A stretch of 64,000 bases of DNA from a virus, in the IMG/VR virus record IMGVR_UViG_3300035698_016830, positions 29,237 through 93,236 of that record, one strand, 5' to 3'. Below the pieces are notes generated by a model, which made no database searches, was not told the DNA's origin, and worked only from the letters and a program-made list of their open reading frames with translations. The position numbers and the translations under genes were made by a program. Shown here in pieces: positions 1,425 to 13,418 of the stretch (the stretch's first letter is position 1; each line of letters opens with the position of its first letter).

Positions 1425-2492
1425 ATGAACAGAATCAAACTAATGGATTCACTTGCTCAAGTGACTCCTGCATTATCAACTAAGAATATGGTTCCTGCTT
1501 TTTCCTGTGTTTGCTTTACAGGTAAAACCATGCAGACTTATAATGATGTTATTGCTTTACAGTTAAAATTCAAAAGTGATTATGTTGGTGGGGTTGTCGG
1601 GAAACTGCTTTCAACTTTTGTAAAGACCGCTGCGACTGATGAAATAGAATTTACTCCTGAAGGTGAAGAGTTGCTGCTAAAGTCTGGCAGATCAAAACTC
1701 ACAGTAACACCTTTATCAGAGGGTGAGTTTGTTTTTAAGATGCCAAAACTAAAAGAAGGAAACAAGATAGCTTGCCCTGAGAATCTGGTTAACGCAGTGA
1801 ATAGGGTTTGTCTTTCATTGGGCAGAGATCCAGGTTTTCCAACTACGATGGGGGTGACAATTATTCCAAAGAAGAAAGGTGTTTATCTTTGTTCAGCAGA
1901 AGGCTCATCTGCAATCACAAGAGTGTTCCTGAAAGATAAGGATTTTTCTAATGCTTTGCCAGGACCAATTTTGCTACCTCCTCAATTGTGTGATTTCTTC
2001 TTGAAGATTGCTTCTAAGGACTCACCTAAAAATATGTATCTGTCTGAGGAGTGGGTAATCTTTACTTTTGAATCTGGATTGAAGTTATTTTCTCGCTTGG
2101 GTGAAGAAATTGATCCAGAGTTGTTTGAAGGGGCTATGCGTAACCATTACACGCCGAACAAGGATTCATTCGTAACCTTACCATCAGGCACCGAAGGTGC
2201 GTTAGATCGAGCACTAGCCGTGTTAGATGGGGCAGCAGAGAAGATTGGTACTGTATCAGTAAAGAAGAGTCGTTTGCGCATTGAAGCAACCGCAGCGCAA
2301 GGGAGTCTATTTGATGTTCTTAAATTACCTGATCATGACAATGTGAAGATACGATTGGACTTAGTTCGTTTTAAGTCAGCTTTGCAGTTTGCTGACTCAA
2401 TCTTCATTACTGAGGATTCTGTATTATTAAAGCAAGGGAGTCTTGTACATTTAATTGCTGTTCATTATCAAGAAGGCGAAGATGCTGACTAA
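1425..2492 (+). CDS. dnaN: DNA polymerase III beta (sliding clamp)-like protein
   Basis: 355 aa; N-terminus LxxVxPALSTKNMVPAFSCV typical of beta clamps; replication context. Confidence 0.75.
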   Translation: MNRIKLMDSLAQVTPALSTKNMVPAFSCVCFTGKTMQTYNDVIALQLKFKSDYVGGVVGKLLSTFVKTAATDEIEFTPEGEELLLKSGRSKLTVTPLSEGEFVFKMPKLKEGNKIACPENLVNAVNRVCLSLGRDPGFPTTMGVTIIPKKKGVYLCSAEGSSAITRVFLKDKDFSNALPGPILLPPQLCDFFLKIASKDSPKNMYLSEEWVIFTFESGLKLFSRLGEEIDPELFEGAMRNHYTPNKDSFVTLPSGTEGALDRALAVLDGAAEKIGTVSVKKSRLRIEATAAQGSLFDVLKLPDHDNVKIRLDLVRFKSALQFADSIFITEDSVLLKQGSLVHLIAVHYQEGEDAD

Positions 2493-3828
2493 ATATAATG
2501 ATTTTTTAATTAGTAAGAGGGTCAATACAGATTTCAGGGGTTTTGAGCCTACTTGGATTCCTGATTTCCTATTTGACTTTCAGAAAGAGTTGGTGGTTTG
2601 GTCAATCAAGAAAGGACAAGCAGCTATCTTTGCTGACTGTGGCCTCGGAAAAACGCCGATGCAACTTGTATGGGCTCAAAATGTGGTCGAGCAAACAGGT
2701 AAGAGTGTACTTATTTTTGCTCCTTTAGCAGTAACTAATCAAACAGTACGAGAGGCGAAAAAATTTGGTATCGGTATTCATAAAACACGAAATGGAAAAG
2801 TGCATAAGGGTATTAACATTACAAATTATGAGAGGCTGCATTATTTTGATCAAAAAGACATAGCAGGTATTGTTATAGATGAATCTGGAATAATCAAAAA
2901 CTTTGCAGGTAAGTTTCGTCAAAATATCACAGAGTTTACCAAAGACATACCATATCGTTTATTATGCACGGCTACCCCTTCTCCTAATGACTACATGGAA
3001 CTTGGGACATCAGCAGAGCTCCTTTCTAACATGACTAGAATGCAGATGCTAGGTATGTTCTTCACAAACTCAGGAGATAGTACACAGCAGTGGCTTTTAA
3101 AAGGACATGCAAAGAAGAGGTTTTGGGAATGGGTGGCTACTTGGGCACGAGCTATAAGAAAGCCATCAGATTTTGGATATGATGATGGTGATTTTGTACT
3201 TCCTAAAATGGGGATAAAATACCATACTTTAGAGACGCCACCAATAAGAGGATATTTATTTAATGTGGCAGCAAGAACTTTGCAGCAGCAGAGATCAGAA
3301 CGCAATAGGTCTATTAATGAGCGTTGTGAGATGACTGCTGACATTGCAATCAAAGCTAATGACTACCATCTATGTTGGTGCAATCTTAACAAGGAGGGCG
3401 ATTTACTTGAAAAATTAATTCCTGGTTCTATTCAAGTTGCTGGAGCTAACTCAGATGAAGAAAAGGAGGAACGGTTAGAGGCTTTTGCAAATGGTGAGTT
3501 TAAGGTTCTTGTAACCAAAACAAAAATAGCCTGTTTTGGTTTGAATCTTCAGCATTGTAATGCTATGACTTTCTTTCCTAGTCATTCACATGAGCAGTTC
3601 TATCAGGCTTTAAGAAGGTGCTGGAGGTTTGGTCAGAAGCGGTCAGTAACCTGCAACATTGTTATGACTGACAGGGAATCTCTTATTGTTTCTAATATGA
3701 TAAGGAAAGAGAAGCAAGCGGTAGAAATGTATGATCAGATAATAAAAGAGATGCACGAATTTCAAACTAATAAAAGAGTTGTCAAAAAGGTACTTCCTGA
3801 AATGATGCAACTTCCAGAATGGTTATAA
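2482..3828 (+). CDS. SNF2/SF2-like helicase
   Basis: Walker A-like FADCGLGKT, DESG Walker B variant, CTATPSPND, GLNLQHC and RRCWRFGQ. ATG 2482 is preferred over 2455 because it has an SD (AGAAGG). Confidence 0.85.
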   Translation: MLTKYNDFLISKRVNTDFRGFEPTWIPDFLFDFQKELVVWSIKKGQAAIFADCGLGKTPMQLVWAQNVVEQTGKSVLIFAPLAVTNQTVREAKKFGIGIHKTRNGKVHKGINITNYERLHYFDQKDIAGIVIDESGIIKNFAGKFRQNITEFTKDIPYRLLCTATPSPNDYMELGTSAELLSNMTRMQMLGMFFTNSGDSTQQWLLKGHAKKRFWEWVATWARAIRKPSDFGYDDGDFVLPKMGIKYHTLETPPIRGYLFNVAARTLQQQRSERNRSINERCEMTADIAIKANDYHLCWCNLNKEGDLLEKLIPGSIQVAGANSDEEKEERLEAFANGEFKVLVTKTKIACFGLNLQHCNAMTFFPSHSHEQFYQALRRCWRFGQKRSVTCNIVMTDRESLIVSNMIRKEKQAVEMYDQIIKEMHEFQTNKRVVKKVLPEMMQLPEWL

Positions 3829-7410: not shown

Positions 7411-9516
7411 ATGAGTGATTTTCATACAAAATATAGGCCAAAGACATTTGAAGAAGTGGTAGGGCAAGACGAAACAGTAAAAGCTTTACAAACTGTTTTG
7501 GCTACCAAGTCTTGCAGATCTTTTATTTTTACAGGGCCTTCCGGTGTGGGCAAAACAACCCTGGCAAGAATTATTGGCAGAGAGGTAGGTTGTACTAGGC
7601 GGAACCTTATTGAGATTGATGCCGCTACTCATACGGGTATTGATGCGATGCGTTCTATCACTGATACGTTGCGGTATAAGGCAATAGGCAAAGCAGCTAG
7701 GGTAGTTATCATAGATGAGTGCTTTGCTAAAGGAACGCTTGTTAGTACGCCTTCAGGTGCTATTTGCATTGAAGATATAGCTATAGGTGATAGCGTTTTT
7801 AATATGGATGGCCCCGCTGAAGTTAAAAACACTTTTGTAAATAAAGTAGATTTAGGCAGGGTTGTAAAAGTGGTAGCGGATGATAATTGTCTTATCTGCT
7901 CAGAGGATCATGAGTTTTTTACTACTGAAGGTTGGGTAAAAGCAAAAAATCTTAAAAATCATTTGATTTTCACAAGCAATTTTAGTAATACTATGGGAAG
8001 CACTGTATTACTAAAGGAGCTAGAAAATGAAAAAGTTAAGGTTGCGACTGAAAAAGCGTTATGTGAAGTTACGTGTAAAACCACCAACATCAGCAAAGTA
8101 CAAGAAATGCGAGGATTGTGGGGAAGAGTTCTGGGCAGTGGTTTGGAATCGGAAGTACTGCAACAATTGCAATACTGTGGATATAACCTGCGAGGGATGT
8201 GGCGAGAGTTTTTCGAGACTTCGAAACGCTACGGAAATGAATTGTTCACGAGAGTGTGGGAATGCTACGGCAGGAGCGAAGAGACGAGGGCCTCATTCGG
8301 AGTCACACAAAAAAGCCGTCAAGGAAGGTCAGCAAAAGTCAAGGAGGGACAACCCGGAATTTTGGAAAAAGAAAGCCTACGAGAGCTCTCAAAGAATGAA
8401 GAAGAGCAACCCTGTACACATGCCTGGGGTATTAGAAAAAATAGAAGCTACGAAGAAAATAAATGGAACTTTACACATTTGGTCAGGAGAGCGTGGGGGC
8501 AATGGAAAGCTTACAAAAGAGCAAACGATTTTATCTGCTGCCCTGTGTTGGCCTATGGAAGTAATCATCAAGACGGGACACAATCAACAGGATGGGAGCG
8601 GGTTCCCTACCAATTACAAAGTGGACGTAGGAGAGGAGTCTTTGCGAATAGCTGTAGAGGTGGACGGGAGTGGGCACAGAGTGAAAAGGAATATCGCATT
8701 AGACAAGAAGAAGGAAGAGAAGTTGAAACAGTTAGGGTGGATAGTGTTGAGATTTACCAACGAGGAAATAATGACAAATCTTTTTTGGGTGTTATCGGTG
8801 ATAAAGAAAGAAATCAAGGCTTTGTAGAGTTTCATGATTTGGAGATAGACGGACATCCTTCTTACCACGCCAACAGCGTTCTTGTTCACAATTGCCACGC
8901 GCTTAGTAAGCAGGCATGGCAGTCCTTATTAAAACCAATTGAGGAGCCACCAGCTGATGTATATTGGTGTTTGTGTACTACGGAACCTGGGAAAGTTCCA
9001 GCAACTATTAAGACGCGATGCCAAGCTTATGAGTTGAAGGATGTGAAAGCAAAAGAAATTTACAAACTTCTGAAAATAGTAGCTAAGGAGGAAAAGTGTT
9101 CCTGTGATCAGGAAGCTTTAAAATTGATTGCTAAGAATTCAATGGGATCACCACGAATGGCCTTAACTACTTTGGCCAAGTGTGCGAGAACAAAAGATAT
9201 TGAAGAGGTCTCAGAACTTTTAAACACAGCGAAGAATGAAACGGAGTTTATTGGTTTCTTGCGTTGGGTATCTGGTGATAGGCATGAATGGGATGAGGCC
9301 AGAGAGTTTGTAAAACAAATGTCTGATAAAGCAGGAGAAGGAATCAGGCGTGTAGTAGTCAACTATCTTATGAAGTGTATTTTAGGCTGCAAGCAACCTG
9401 ATAGAGCCTGTAAATTGTTAGGGACCCTGAGCGCTTTTTCAACTGCTTATCCATCAGATAGTAAGTCAGAGCATCTACTACTTTCACTTGGGGAGTTGAT
9501 TTTTGAAACAGAGTGA
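7411..9516 (+). CDS. dnaX: DNA polymerase III gamma/tau-like clamp loader, intein-containing precursor (about 310 aa after splicing)
   Basis: KYRPKTFEEVVGQ, Walker A GPSGVGKT, IDAATHTGID. Walker B IIDE|CHAL is split by an intein. KPIEEPP and TIKTRC follow. Confidence 0.92.
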   Translation: MSDFHTKYRPKTFEEVVGQDETVKALQTVLATKSCRSFIFTGPSGVGKTTLARIIGREVGCTRRNLIEIDAATHTGIDAMRSITDTLRYKAIGKAARVVIIDECFAKGTLVSTPSGAICIEDIAIGDSVFNMDGPAEVKNTFVNKVDLGRVVKVVADDNCLICSEDHEFFTTEGWVKAKNLKNHLIFTSNFSNTMGSTVLLKELENEKVKVATEKALCEVTCKTTNISKVQEMRGLWGRVLGSGLESEVLQQLQYCGYNLRGMWREFFETSKRYGNELFTRVWECYGRSEETRASFGVTQKSRQGRSAKVKEGQPGILEKESLRELSKNEEEQPCTHAWGIRKNRSYEENKWNFTHLVRRAWGQWKAYKRANDFICCPVLAYGSNHQDGTQSTGWERVPYQLQSGRRRGVFANSCRGGREWAQSEKEYRIRQEEGREVETVRVDSVEIYQRGNNDKSFLGVIGDKERNQGFVEFHDLEIDGHPSYHANSVLVHNCHALSKQAWQSLLKPIEEPPADVYWCLCTTEPGKVPATIKTRCQAYELKDVKAKEIYKLLKIVAKEEKCSCDQEALKLIAKNSMGSPRMALTTLAKCARTKDIEEVSELLNTAKNETEFIGFLRWVSGDRHEWDEAREFVKQMSDKAGEGIRRVVVNYLMKCILGCKQPDRACKLLGTLSAFSTAYPSDSKSEHLLLSLGELIFETE
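7720..8892 (+). mobile_element. Intein (391 aa) in DnaX Walker B
   Basis: Begins CFAKGTLV, has block B CSEDHEFFT, ends FHDLEIDGHPSYHANSVLVHN, followed by Cys+1. Confidence 0.93.
8027..8827 (+). CDS. DUF559/Vsr-like PD-(D/E)XK endonuclease with N-terminal Zn-finger-like repeats, nested in the +1 frame inside the intein
   Basis: SD AAGGAG just upstream of the ATG; CEDCGEEF, CEGCGESF and CSREC; YKVDVG, IAVEVDGSGH and LKQLGWIVLRFTNEEI. Confidence 0.85.
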   Translation: MKKLRLRLKKRYVKLRVKPPTSAKYKKCEDCGEEFWAVVWNRKYCNNCNTVDITCEGCGESFSRLRNATEMNCSRECGNATAGAKRRGPHSESHKKAVKEGQQKSRRDNPEFWKKKAYESSQRMKKSNPVHMPGVLEKIEATKKINGTLHIWSGERGGNGKLTKEQTILSAALCWPMEVIIKTGHNQQDGSGFPTNYKVDVGEESLRIAVEVDGSGHRVKRNIALDKKKEEKLKQLGWIVLRFTNEEIMTNLFWVLSVIKKEIKAL

Positions 9517-12614: not shown

Positions 12615-13418
12615 GTGAGACATTTAGATTTGTTCAGTGGCATTGGAGGCTTTGCTTTGGCAGCTTCATGGGCTTGGCCAGAGCATAAGATAATGTCTTT
12701 TTGTGAAAAAGATACTTTCTGTCAACAAGTATTAAAAAAACACTGGCCAGAAGTACCTATTGAATCAGATATTTTTAAATTAGATGGAAGTAAGTATGGA
12801 AAAGTTGATCTCCTTACAGGCGGTTTCCCCTGCCAACCGTTCAGTACGGCTGGGAAGCGGAGAGGCAAGAAAGATGACCGTCACCTCTGGCCAGAAATGT
12901 TTAGAGTTATTAAACAAGCAAAACCCACTTGGATTATTGGTGAAAATGTTGCTGGAATCATCAACATGGAGCTCGACCAAGTGTTTACTGATTTGGAAGT
13001 TGCGGGTTACGCCACACAATCGTTTATTATTCCAGCTTGCGCCGTTAGGGCTCCACATAAAAGAGAGAGGGTTTGGGTTTGTGTCAACTTTAGAGGCAAC
13101 CCAGATCATAAGCAACGGACCATTTTTAAAAACACGAACTTCATGGGGAAGGCAGGCCAAAACAACAAATTCAATTTTTGGGGCCAATTTAACAGAACAC
13201 ATGAATTTAGAACACAAAAAGGAGCCAATGCTTCCTTTGAATCCACGTTTTGCAGAAATGATAATGGGGTATCCGGTAGGTTGGACAGACTTAAATCCTT
13301 AGGAAATGCTATAGTTCCTCAAGTTGTTTATGAGATATTTAAGAGTATAAAACAGTTTGAGGAAAATAATCAACATAGTGGTGAACGTAAAAGGTTAATC
13401 ATAAAACCATTATTTTAA
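12615..13418 (+). CDS. C5-cytosine DNA methyltransferase, large (alpha) polypeptide
   Basis: LDLFSGIGG (motif I), GGFPCQPFS (IV), GENV (VI), HKRERVW (VIII), RLKSLGNAIVPQV (X); no motif IX in this frame. Confidence 0.92.
   Translation: MRHLDLFSGIGGFALAASWAWPEHKIMSFCEKDTFCQQVLKKHWPEVPIESDIFKLDGSKYGKVDLLTGGFPCQPFSTAGKRRGKKDDRHLWPEMFRVIKQAKPTWIIGENVAGIINMELDQVFTDLEVAGYATQSFIIPACAVRAPHKRERVWVCVNFRGNPDHKQRTIFKNTNFMGKAGQNNKFNFWGQFNRTHEFRTQKGANASFESTFCRNDNGVSGRLDRLKSLGNAIVPQVVYEIFKSIKQFEENNQHSGERKRLIIKPLF
12784..13302 (+). CDS. Probable small (beta) methyltransferase polypeptide in a nested +1 frame, carrying motif IX
   Basis: 172-codon ORF entirely inside the MTase gene, ending LNPRFAEMIMGYPVGWTDL. 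Alternative start ATG 12796 has GGAAG upstream. Confidence 0.7.
   Translation: MEVSMEKLISLQAVSPANRSVRLGSGEARKMTVTSGQKCLELLNKQNPLGLLVKMLLESSTWSSTKCLLIWKLRVTPHNRLLFQLAPLGLHIKERGFGFVSTLEATQIISNGPFLKTRTSWGRQAKTTNSIFGANLTEHMNLEHKKEPMLPLNPRFAEMIMGYPVGWTDLNP

Follow-up and report, generated by a model that had tools for sequence, protein, structure and literature searches.

A putative Vsr-like homing endonuclease encoded in the +1 frame of an intein in a phage clamp-loader gene

In a stretch of 64,000 nucleotides of viral DNA, referred to here as the window, we found a phage clamp-loader gene that contains an intein, and within that intein a complete nuclease gene that is read in the +1 frame of the same strand. 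In our assessment there is a probability of roughly 85% that the two form a mobile intein and homing-endonuclease element that uses two reading frames of the same DNA. The features concerned are as follows.

7411-9516, + strand: clamp-loader gene (DnaX/gp44-like AAA+), an uninterrupted frame of 701 aa, intein included; predicted spliced product of 310 aa
7411-7719, + strand: N-extein, ending in the Walker B motif ...VVIIDE
7720-8892, + strand: class 1 intein of 391 aa in the host frame, with Cys1, block B, block F and the terminal H390-N391, followed by Cys+1
7720-7983, + strand: N-terminal Hint lobe (intein residues 1-88), with a confident predicted fold
7962-8032, + strand: predicted RNA stem-loop, whose core 12-bp stem pairs 7980-7991 with 8005-8016
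7984-8709, + strand: host-frame "shadow" linker (intein residues ~89-330), stop-free, without a confident fold or protein-level conservation of its own
8014-8019, + strand: Shine-Dalgarno sequence AAGGAG, 7 nt before the ATG at 8027
8027-8827, + strand: +1-frame gene for a putative Vsr-like/DUF559 homing endonuclease of the EDxHD type, encoding 266 aa and followed by a stop
8108-8257, + strand: two zinc-ribbon modules (C28/C31/C45/C48 and C55/C58/C73/C77), presumed to bind DNA
8516-8821, + strand: nuclease core (nuclease residues 164-265) with E211/D213/H217/D226
8710-8824, + strand: true double-coding segment of ~115 nt, shared by nuclease residues 229-266 and the first part of the C-terminal Hint lobe
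8710-8892, + strand: C-terminal Hint lobe (intein residues 331-391) with VLVHN at its end, pLDDT 79-98
8893-9516, + strand: C-extein, beginning CHALSKQAW

The original prediction had placed the intein at 7720-8892 and the +1 ORF at 8027-8827, with its own AAGGAG, zinc-finger-like repeats and DUF559/Vsr-like similarity, and all of these were recovered. Two SNPs are present in another sequencing run (positions 8366 and 8435); they alter both frames, create no stop and are thus uninformative.

The host gene showed matches to DNA_pol3_delta2 (1.7e-17), AAA and phrog_5846 (6.7e-70), and its intein-less relatives are exactly 310 aa long. The intein lies at the Walker B site, with the junctions IIDE/CFAKGTL...SVLVHN/CHAL (slashes mark the extein-intein boundaries). 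Judged from its sequence and structure model, it is a class 1 Hint-fold intein, with the nucleophile, block B (S61-E-D-H64), block F (Y372-D373), the terminal HN/C and a horseshoe fold. In 56 aligned inteins, C1, H390, and N391 are invariant, and H64 and D373 occur in at least 90%; Cys+1 is present in the window and at 65 of the 66 junctions listed, the other one having Ser. The relatives share the C-terminal Hint consensus RVESVEIYKRG.ND.SF...GFV.FYDLEV..HPSYFANG.LVHN. The Pfam profiles Hint_2 and Intein_splicing match 58 of 66 relatives and remain below their cut-offs in the window intein. The AlphaFold model of the intein has pLDDT values of 96 to 98 for residues 1-80, above 95 for residues 1-88 and mostly above 90 for residues 341-391, and its best Foldseek match was the gp41-1 intein (6qaz, E 4.7e-7), with DnaB and RecA inteins also among the matches.

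As judged likewise from sequence and predicted fold, the +1 ORF encodes a Vsr-like/EDxHD enzyme with a recognizable core and intact catalytic residues. Its Pfam match is DUF559 (E 5.6e-11), four CxxC pairs occur in its sequence, and 133 homologs were retrieved. D213 and H217 are invariant and E211 and D226 present in at least 90% of 53 nuclease sequences, and the RGGNG motif just upstream of the core (residues 156-160) is conserved or invariant. In the zinc ribbons of related nucleases, C55 and C58 are invariant, and C73 and C77 occur in at least 90%; the structure model places strands at residues 24-37 and 50-65 of this region, and phrog_1271 matches the N-terminal part. The predicted structure has a pLDDT of 87.6. 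In profile searches against the PDB the best scores were those of 3hrl (4.7e-13) and 3r3p (1.3e-3), whereas the top Foldseek matches were 3r3p, 1vsr, 3hrl, and 1cw0, with probabilities of 0.95 to 0.99 and E-values of only ~1e-2, which are weak because the core comprises only ~100 of the 266 residues.

The top fold match, 3r3p, is I-Bth0305I, the prototype EDxHD homing endonuclease, which is located in a recA group I intron and uses NUMOD2 motifs for DNA binding (Taylor et al. 2011, PMC3239194). Both proteins have 266 residues in two parts, namely, an N-terminal DNA-binding region and a Vsr-like core with E, D, H, and D; the equivalence of these four residues derives from the HMM alignment, not from an inspected superposition. 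Unlike I-Bth0305I, the window nuclease lies inside an intein, has two zinc ribbons and the invariant RGGNG, and is closer by sequence to the DUF559 protein 3hrl. The search for NUMOD DNA-binding modules in the nuclease gave no Pfam match, and the two Cys4 zinc ribbons are found there instead. A candidate predicted cleavage target is given by an intein-less allele (locus L087), ...ATTGATGAG/TGCGCTGCA...

The host frame remains open through the nuclease gene far beyond chance, and there is selection against stops in it, as the original prediction had proposed. Over positions 8026-8829 the host frame contains no stop and the third forward frame 25. Nuclease codons preceding AA, AG, or GA never end in T (0/97), whereas elsewhere 53 of 169 do. 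Synonymous permutation of the nuclease gene created on average 13.8 host-frame stops (minimum 3), with no stop-free sequence in 20,000, and 29.5 stops are expected under the codon usage of the neighboring genes. The same holds for 58 distinct related loci, for each of which 4 to 24 host-frame stops were expected and none was seen; a stop-creating T was found at 0 of the 4,940 susceptible nuclease codon positions in these loci. Since a host replication gene is read through ~800 nt of the nuclease gene, the codon choice of the nuclease is constrained at every stop-creating position.

The +1 frame is under protein-level selection, which agrees with the expectation that this ORF is conserved in homologs. 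For the same nucleotides, protein identity is 49.5% in the nuclease frame versus 25.6% in the host frame. Entropy at codon positions 1, 2, and 3 of the nuclease core is about 0.9, 0.8, and 1.5, so that position 3 varies most, and this most variable base is host-frame codon position 1. The center of the intein in the host frame (residues ~89-330) was modeled with pLDDT values of about 40 to 60, rising to 75 to 78 in two blocks, searches of Pfam and PHROG with it gave no match, and the length of this linker ranges from ~270 to 439 aa among related inteins. Its description as a non-protein shadow frame is thus borne out, as only intein residues 1-88 and 331-391 fold; the center is selected only against stop codons and not for amino-acid sequence.

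Only the last ~115 nt of the nuclease gene are constrained at the protein level in both frames. This segment has a confident predicted fold in both frames, its third-position entropy falls to ~1.0-1.2, and identity amounts to 56% and 43% in the two frames; on its own, it also matches contigs of other elements. The claim of selection on both frames therefore stands for the avoidance of stops throughout, whereas protein constraint on the host frame is confined to this segment. Similarly, the nuclease ORF had been said to end before block F: its stop indeed falls where block F begins, but the ~38 codons before this stop are shared with structured strands of the C-terminal Hint lobe that lie upstream of the block.

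The layout recurs widely. Scanning IMG/VR with a nuclease-only peptide pattern and a profile resulted in 189 confirmed stretches; a scan of viral contigs with the single protein found no relatives, whereas the profile scan did, and blastn of the gene against GenBank phages gave no match. The nuclease was in the +1 frame and the host frame open in 73 of 75 viral and in all 17 bacterial-genome loci, so that homologs do not place the nuclease in the intein frame. The layout is also present in three cultured phages annotated as having single helicase CDSs, and in their GenBank entries the nuclease ORF is unannotated (Vibrio phage CP-T1 gp10, Pseudomonas phage MR14 gp44, and Corynebacterium phage phi673 gp43). 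Median nuclease identity among related loci is 41%, and the sharing of this layout by ~90 related sequences indicates a stable, selected design. Two related loci, L001 and L003, are broken or fractured, which shows that the contiguous state is not obligatory. L003 encodes an in-frame fusion of the N-terminal intein half with the nuclease, and a separate C-terminal half initiated by its own ATG. We considered L001 as an in-frame nuclease variant and rejected this, because the standard layout with one indel near 1019-1035 explains it better. Short DUF559 proteins from genomes (Brevundimonas, Rhizobium, and others) were also set aside, since they lack an intein and are unrelated to the layout.

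The closest clamp loaders, which are 75 to 76% identical and have the same gene order, contain no intein and are exactly 391 aa shorter, whereas intein-bearing clamp loaders are at most 46% identical to that of the window. These intein-less relatives bear on the mobility of the element, which would be by homing. The closest of them is P0122, and the DNA comparison was made with P0123; at the DNA level, identity to the intein-less relatives is only 71%, which gives no indication of recent homing into the window lineage.

In the proposed mechanism, ribosomes in the host frame would read straight through and produce a 701-aa precursor, in which the two Hint halves are joined by an unstructured linker of ~240 aa with the sole role of containing no stop codon. 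The intein would then splice in cis and release the 310-aa clamp loader. The internal Shine-Dalgarno sequence and ATG (8014/8027) would start a separate 266-aa +1 protein, with two zinc ribbons and the Vsr-like (EDxHD) nuclease, expected to cut intein-less alleles at the DE/(C or S)H Walker B site, and repair would copy the whole element in. Part of the Shine-Dalgarno sequence and the ATG are base-paired in the predicted stem-loop at 7962-8032 (MFE -24.9 kcal/mol, z -3.8, none of 200 shuffles being equally stable), which probably limits translation of the nuclease or couples it to passing host-frame ribosomes. A hairpin at this place reached z < -2 under a simple mononucleotide shuffle in only 21 of 58 related loci, and we therefore keep it as a hypothesis and not as a family feature. 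A promoter scan found no internal promoter ahead of the nuclease gene, promoter-like sites being fewer than in shuffles, and no RNA sequencing runs holding the window sequence were found.

Out-of-frame intein endonucleases are already known, having been described only recently, and the idea of a dual-coding homing element, although supported by our data, is for this reason less new than the original prediction assumed. Gosselin, Arsenault and Gogarten (bioRxiv 10.1101/2025.01.02.630785) reported non-canonical inteins whose endonuclease is encoded in a different frame or on the opposite strand, namely, antisense LAGLIDADG, antisense VSR-like and frame-3 endonuclease VII-like types, in actinophage genes for polymerase, capsid, terminase, and thymidylate synthase. 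They called them rare and found the secondary ORFs typically outside the splicing domain. An older case is the antisense LAGLIDADG in the Synechocystis dnaX intein; by term counts, a 2026 preprint on cyanobacterial dnaX inteins (10.64898/2026.09.14.751524) mentions LAGLIDADG and not Vsr. Like the inteins of Gosselin et al., that of the window is contiguous, its host-frame center has no recognizable fold, and a complete endonuclease ORF in another register, missed by automatic annotation, lies between the splicing blocks; the distribution is sporadic in both cases. In contrast to those types, the window element is VSR-like/EDxHD in the sense +1 frame, a form that has not been described; it occurs in clamp loaders and SF2 helicases and is abundant rather than rare, and the 3' end of its nuclease overlaps the splicing domain by ~115 nt.

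In "fractured genes", a free-standing Vsr-like or GIY-YIG endonuclease gene lies between the halves of a split intein; the host frame has a stop, a non-coding gap of 27-51 nt and an own start for the C-terminal half, and splicing occurs in trans (Dassa et al. 2009, PMC2677866). The window shares with them the location in phage replication genes, the order of N-intein, own-start endonuclease and C-intein on one strand, the Vsr-like family, hairpins ahead of the endonuclease start, and the overlap of the endonuclease 3' end with the C-intein coding region (in the window from ~8710); the nearest solved intein, gp41-1, comes from such a locus. Clamp loaders, however, are absent from the eight host types of fractured genes (PMC2677866), and the window host frame is uninterrupted over 7411-9516, as it is in nearly all related loci, which points to one precursor and splicing in cis. 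The out-of-frame HNH endonuclease insertions of the ShiLan type in phage methylases, which lack a detectable ribosome-binding site and for which a leaderless start has been suggested (Arsenault et al. 2025, PMC11855218), resemble the window in that the host frame reads without stop through an inserted endonuclease gene encoded in another frame. They differ in that, in the absence of an intein, the inserted segment is retained as a loop of the host protein, and in that the nuclease is of the HNH family, whereas the window nuclease has a clear Shine-Dalgarno sequence.

Four other explanations were weighed against the element with two independently translated frames. Both frames might encode working proteins throughout, with intein residues ~89-330 as a functional domain. 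The strictly open frame, the long helices that AlphaFold places at residues 94-193 (pLDDT up to 78) and a few conserved host-frame positions (L299, Q300, and R313) would agree with this, but these positions reflect conserved motifs of the overlapping nuclease, such as YKVD, and the low host-frame identity, the variability of host-frame codon position 1, the variable length and the lack of Pfam and PHROG matches make it very unlikely. We regard as highly unlikely that a programmed +1 ribosomal frameshift makes the nuclease as a fusion with the N-extein and the N-terminal intein half. L003 demonstrates that a fusion of this half to the nuclease exists in nature, and 12 of 59 related loci have no obvious Shine-Dalgarno sequence; in the other 47, however, an SD-preceded start heads the nuclease ORF, the AAGGAG-N7-ATG of the window is a strong signal, in most loci a stop shortly before the start codon closes the +1 frame, and no conserved slippery site was seen.

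The similarity to the 2009 loci in gene order and in nuclease/C-intein overlap, the origin of the naturally split gp41-1 intein from a fractured gene and the separate ATG-initiated C-terminal half of L003 might suggest that the intein halves are made separately and spliced in trans, the open host frame being incidental. In that case the absolute avoidance of stops in about 90 diverged loci would be unexplained, as the frame would not be read; as there is no stop between the intein halves, ribosomes must read through, and no SD-preceded start is present before the C-terminal half in the window. We thus consider this explanation extremely unlikely. Finally, the window is a metagenome assembly and L001 resembles the standard layout altered by one indel, so that the frames could have arisen from two compensating sequencing errors, or the +1 gene could be a dead relic whose open frame is due to chance. 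Three independent runs, however, yielded contigs without gaps across both frame junctions, which also disposes of the compensating indels on which the original prediction would have failed, and the same frames in about 90 loci at the above divergence, the invariant catalytic residues and the confident fold make an artefact or relic barely conceivable.

Returning to the element with two separately translated frames, we tentatively propose a wider scenario that we consider possible but doubtful as a whole. The sense +1 layout may be the main, anciently stable form of Vsr-like intein endonucleases, and a single lineage may have spread between clamp loaders and SF2 helicases via the shared DE/CH nucleotide-binding motif, with ~115 nt encoding two folded segments. 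Ribosomes in the host frame might open the hairpin that conceals the start of the nuclease, and nuclease synthesis would thereby be coupled to translation of the host gene. In this scenario, fractured genes could be occasional derivatives, or the layout could be the missing intermediate of the 2009 gene-breaking model.

The locus represents a natural case of overprinting, in which an essential replication gene is read through ~800 nt of another gene and the bases of the final ~115 nt serve two folded proteins at once. It corresponds to a third intein state, lying between inteins with a classical in-frame endonuclease and split "fractured genes", and this bears on the entry of endonucleases into inteins and on the origin of split inteins. 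Gene-prediction programs will overlook every member of this family, and inteins of this kind will be mistaken for decaying ones. The gp41-1 intein is one of the fractured-gene split inteins used as protein-ligation tools; inteins of the window type are its relatives, and the fact that they tolerate a junk linker of ~240 aa may be of use, while new specificities for long targets might be obtained from the nucleases.

The clamp-loader gene of the window contains an intein in its own reading frame (the host frame), and a complete nuclease ORF lies within this intein in the +1 frame. The analysis located every element of this arrangement as described in the original prediction:

7411-9516, + strand: clamp-loader ORF including the intein (701 aa, a single open frame), downstream of a family-A DNA polymerase gene
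7720-8892, + strand: intein of 391 codons between IIDE and CHAL, starting with CFAKGTL and ending with SVLVHN
8014-8019, + strand: Shine-Dalgarno (SD) sequence AAGGAG, seven bases ahead of the nuclease ATG
8027-8827, + strand, +1 frame: nuclease ORF (266 aa; DUF559)

The viral record that holds the window comprises 105.9 kb, with an estimated completeness of ~80%, and DNA matching the window is present in salt-lake metagenome runs. Clamp-loader families match both ends of the 7411-9516 ORF (DNA_pol3_delta2, 1.7e-17; AAA; phrog_5846, 6.7e-70). The sequences of the intein termini are those characteristic of class-1 inteins, as expected from the normal splicing ends predicted. The AlphaFold model of the host-frame intein is confident only at residues 1-88 (pLDDT >95) and ~331-391 (mostly >90), whereas residues ~90-320 have a pLDDT of about 40-60, with two blocks reaching up to 75-78, in agreement with the idea that the center is a shadow frame. 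Matches to the folded portion include other inteins as well as gp41-1 (6qaz; E 4.7e-7, 32% identity).

The +1 ORF matches Pfam DUF559 (5.6e-11) and MTES_1575, its N-terminal region matches a phage HNH-endonuclease PHROG, and it is present as a single copy in the genome. We retrieved 133 homologs at E <= 1e-3, the best of which share 47-50% identity over nearly the full length. In an alignment of 53 sequences, C55, C58, the RGGNG motif (residues 156-160), D200, D213, G214, H217, K229, and N245 are invariant, and E211 and D226 are conserved in at least 90%. These positions appear to include the E, D, H, D set (E211, D213, H217, and D226) that defines the Vsr-like "EDxHD" endonucleases (PMC3239194), consistent with the intact nuclease proposed. 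A profile built from the alignment matched the DUF559 structure 3hrl (4.7e-13) and I-Bth0305I (3r3p, 1.3e-3). The AlphaFold model of the nuclease is confident (mean pLDDT 87.6). It shows two zinc ribbons and a helical linker, and residues 164-265 form the nuclease core. Its top fold matches are 3r3p, 1vsr, and 3hrl, with weak E-values because the core is a small fraction of the model.

The host frame contains no stop codon across the nuclease ORF, and the third forward frame contains 25. A T at the third position of a nuclease codon creates a host-frame stop if the next codon begins with AA, AG, or GA; T-ending codons occupy 0 of the 97 stop-risk positions versus 53 of the 169 other positions. 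When synonymous codons were permuted within the ORF, as the original prediction had suggested, none of 20,000 permutations was stop-free (mean, 13.8 host-frame stops; minimum, 3), and the codon usage of neighboring genes resulted in a mean of 29.5 stops. Across 58 distinct related loci, 4 to 24 host-frame stops were expected at each and none was carried. Codons ending in T were found at 0 of 4,940 stop-risk positions in these loci, versus 31% elsewhere, a figure that is circular where loci were picked as contiguous, so that the independent measure is the 73 of 75 viral loci described below. Assembly error was ruled out: contigs from three other runs of different studies span 7712-8179, 7795-8069, 8192-8751, 8496-8995, and 8762-9105, gap-free and differing by no more than two substitutions. 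Compensating indels placing the nuclease in the intein frame were found neither in these contigs nor in the 73 loci.

Selection on each frame was analyzed using a codon alignment of 58 nucleases. In the core (residues 121-225), the entropy at codon positions 1, 2, and 3 was about 0.9, 0.8, and 1.5, which by this alignment is the signature of a protein-coding nuclease frame and the opposite of the pattern expected were the host frame the selected one. When the same nucleotides were translated in both frames, mean amino acid identity reached 49.5% for the nuclease frame versus 25.6% for the host frame, the former being higher in 99.9% of pairs; the +1 ORF is thus conserved as predicted. Judged by a median pairwise identity of 41%, the nucleases are old. 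In the last ~40 nuclease codons, third-position entropy drops to ~1.0-1.2, identities in the two frames are 56% and 43%, and the structure models place nuclease residues 229-266 as well as intein residues 331-368 in confidently folded parts; about 115 nt (8710-8824) thus encode a structured segment in each frame. The proposed selection on both frames consequently holds for the nuclease protein, for stop avoidance in the host frame, and for these last ~115 nt. It does not extend to the central host-frame residues, since the few that are conserved (LQS.., R.RW) are shadows of conserved nuclease motifs. Within the region, contigs of other elements from the same salt-lake metagenomes are recruited by a stretch of ~50 nt at 8718-8783 and by no other part; contigs matching only this stretch (for example, one of 1,097 nt) differ at 4-5 positions. 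Co-occurring phages evidently carry sibling elements, and on these matches no DNA of the family would be more conserved than the double-coded piece.

IMG/VR was scanned with the nuclease peptide pattern GWx[VI]LRFTN as the only seed, a search that takes no account of whether the host frame is open; it yielded 189 confirmed stretches, from which 80 loci were retained. The N-intein, nuclease, and C-intein were placed by tblastn, after which frames and stops were checked. In 73 of the 75 loci in which all three parts were detectable, the host frame runs uninterrupted and the nuclease lies in +1. Of the two exceptions, L001 shows this layout apart from an apparent single indel. The other, the helicase locus L003 (591-2044), represents a truly fractured form of the element: its N-intein half is joined in frame to the nuclease, and, after a stop at 1709-1711, the C-intein half starts at an ATG of its own (1727). 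When bacterial and archaeal genomes were scanned, another 17 loci with a detectable C-intein were recovered (WWE3, Clostridia, Bacteroidales, Desulfobacterium, Nitrospirales, and Azospirillum canadense DS2), every one with an open host frame and the nuclease in +1. At the Azospirillum locus (L097, 1-5715), the nuclease and C-intein lie within an open frame of >1,905 aa with no Pfam match at E <= 1e-6, and the N-intein was not detected with the query used. Host genes were clamp loaders (57/66) and SF2 helicases (about 8/66), and the insertion site was nearly always xDE|C...HN|CH, the Walker B/motif II position. Variant junctions occur among L028 (2203-3222), L029 (1300-2406), L080 (1310-2119), and L083 (2077-3195): DEAH|C...HN|CL, shifted downstream by two residues relative to the common DE|C site, in two of them; HN|SH, with Ser as the +1 residue, in one; and EIHK|C...VSN|CK, with the penultimate His replaced by Ser, in one. 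Three cultured phages have the layout, each gene being annotated as one helicase CDS and the nuclease ORF being unannotated:

Vibrio phage CP-T1 gp10 (L005, 1471-4452): helicase; +1 DUF559 nuclease, open span 2351-3100
Pseudomonas phage MR14 gp44 (L004, 1933-4506): helicase; +1 DUF559 nuclease, open span 2411-3148
Corynebacterium phage phi673 gp43 (L006, 1684-4194): helicase; +1 DUF559 nuclease, open span 2309-2953

The closest clamp loaders (P0121-P0123) lack the intein. They share 75-76% identity in the C-extein and the polA-clamp loader gene order, have a length of 310 aa, exactly 701 minus 391, and read IIDE|SHAL or IIDE|CAAL at the empty site. At the DNA level, the spliced window gene and these intein-less relatives share 71% identity, and intein-bearing clamp loaders are at most 46% identical to that of the window. 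This patchy distribution fits gain by homing or loss in the relatives; a recent event goes beyond what it shows. At the corresponding site (7719/7720 in the window, 1809/1810 in the related locus L087), the Walker B DE is followed by Ser-His or Cys-Ala in the intein-less relatives and by Cys-His in the intein-bearing gene; the +1 nucleophile is thus not universal in empty sites.

An SD-preceded start at the head of the nuclease ORF, often AAAGGAG-N6-8-ATG, was observed in 47 of 59 distinct loci, against a background of ~11% for random start-like triplets from these genes. With several candidate starts at each locus, the number expected by chance is higher. A scan for an internal promoter ahead of the nuclease found none. 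A predicted RNA stem-loop (-24.9 kcal/mol, z -3.8) pairs the ATG and part of the SD; since comparable stability occurs at just 21 of 58 loci, it is a lead rather than a family trait. The hairpin is itself part of the sequence translated in the host frame, so that ribosomes moving along this frame would unfold it, and nuclease synthesis may be coupled to clamp-loader translation.

The principle of an out-of-frame endonuclease is already known from published systems. Dassa et al. (2009; PMC2677866) described fractured genes in the order N-intein, stop, 27-51 nt gap, free-standing Vsr-like or GIY-YIG endonuclease, and C-intein, the endonuclease overlapping the separately initiated C-intein by 6-69 bp. 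These are the split counterpart of the contiguous layout in the window, and their hosts do not include clamp loaders. For actinophages, Gosselin, Arsenault and Gogarten (bioRxiv 10.1101/2025.01.02.630785) reported contiguous inteins with the endonuclease encoded in another register (antisense LAGLIDADG, antisense VSR-like, and frame-3 EndoVII-like) and VSR-like endonucleases as otherwise known with split inteins only; their VSR-like form is antisense, whereas that of the window is sense +1. Out-of-frame HNH insertions that involve no intein, among them HNH genes inside phage methylases, are known from Arsenault et al. (2025; PMC11855218). The window also contains a C5 DNA methyltransferase ORF (12615-13418; 267 aa) with a nested +1-frame ORF (12784-13302; 172 aa). 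A 2026 preprint on a cyanobacterial dnaX intein reports an out-of-frame endonuclease and, judged by the terms it contains, mentions LAGLIDADG and not Vsr. Within the literature searched, in which this preprint was covered by terms only, we found neither the sense +1 Vsr-like form nor its abundance, its clamp-loader/helicase DE|CH niche, or the overlap with the splicing domain.

Taken together, the frames, selection, folds, catalytic residues, recurrence, and intein-less relatives support the interpretation of a dual-coding homing element. The host frame would give a precursor in which the Hint halves are joined by a junk linker and which would splice in cis to the clamp loader, and the +1 frame would give, from its own start, a free-standing Vsr-like nuclease that may target intein-less DE|(C/S)H alleles. 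The linker would be kept stop-free by selection because a stop would abolish an essential replication protein unless the C-half gains a start, which is the fractured-gene state (Dassa et al. 2009, PMC2677866). The CP-T1, MR14, and phi673 loci are ready experimental systems for this element.
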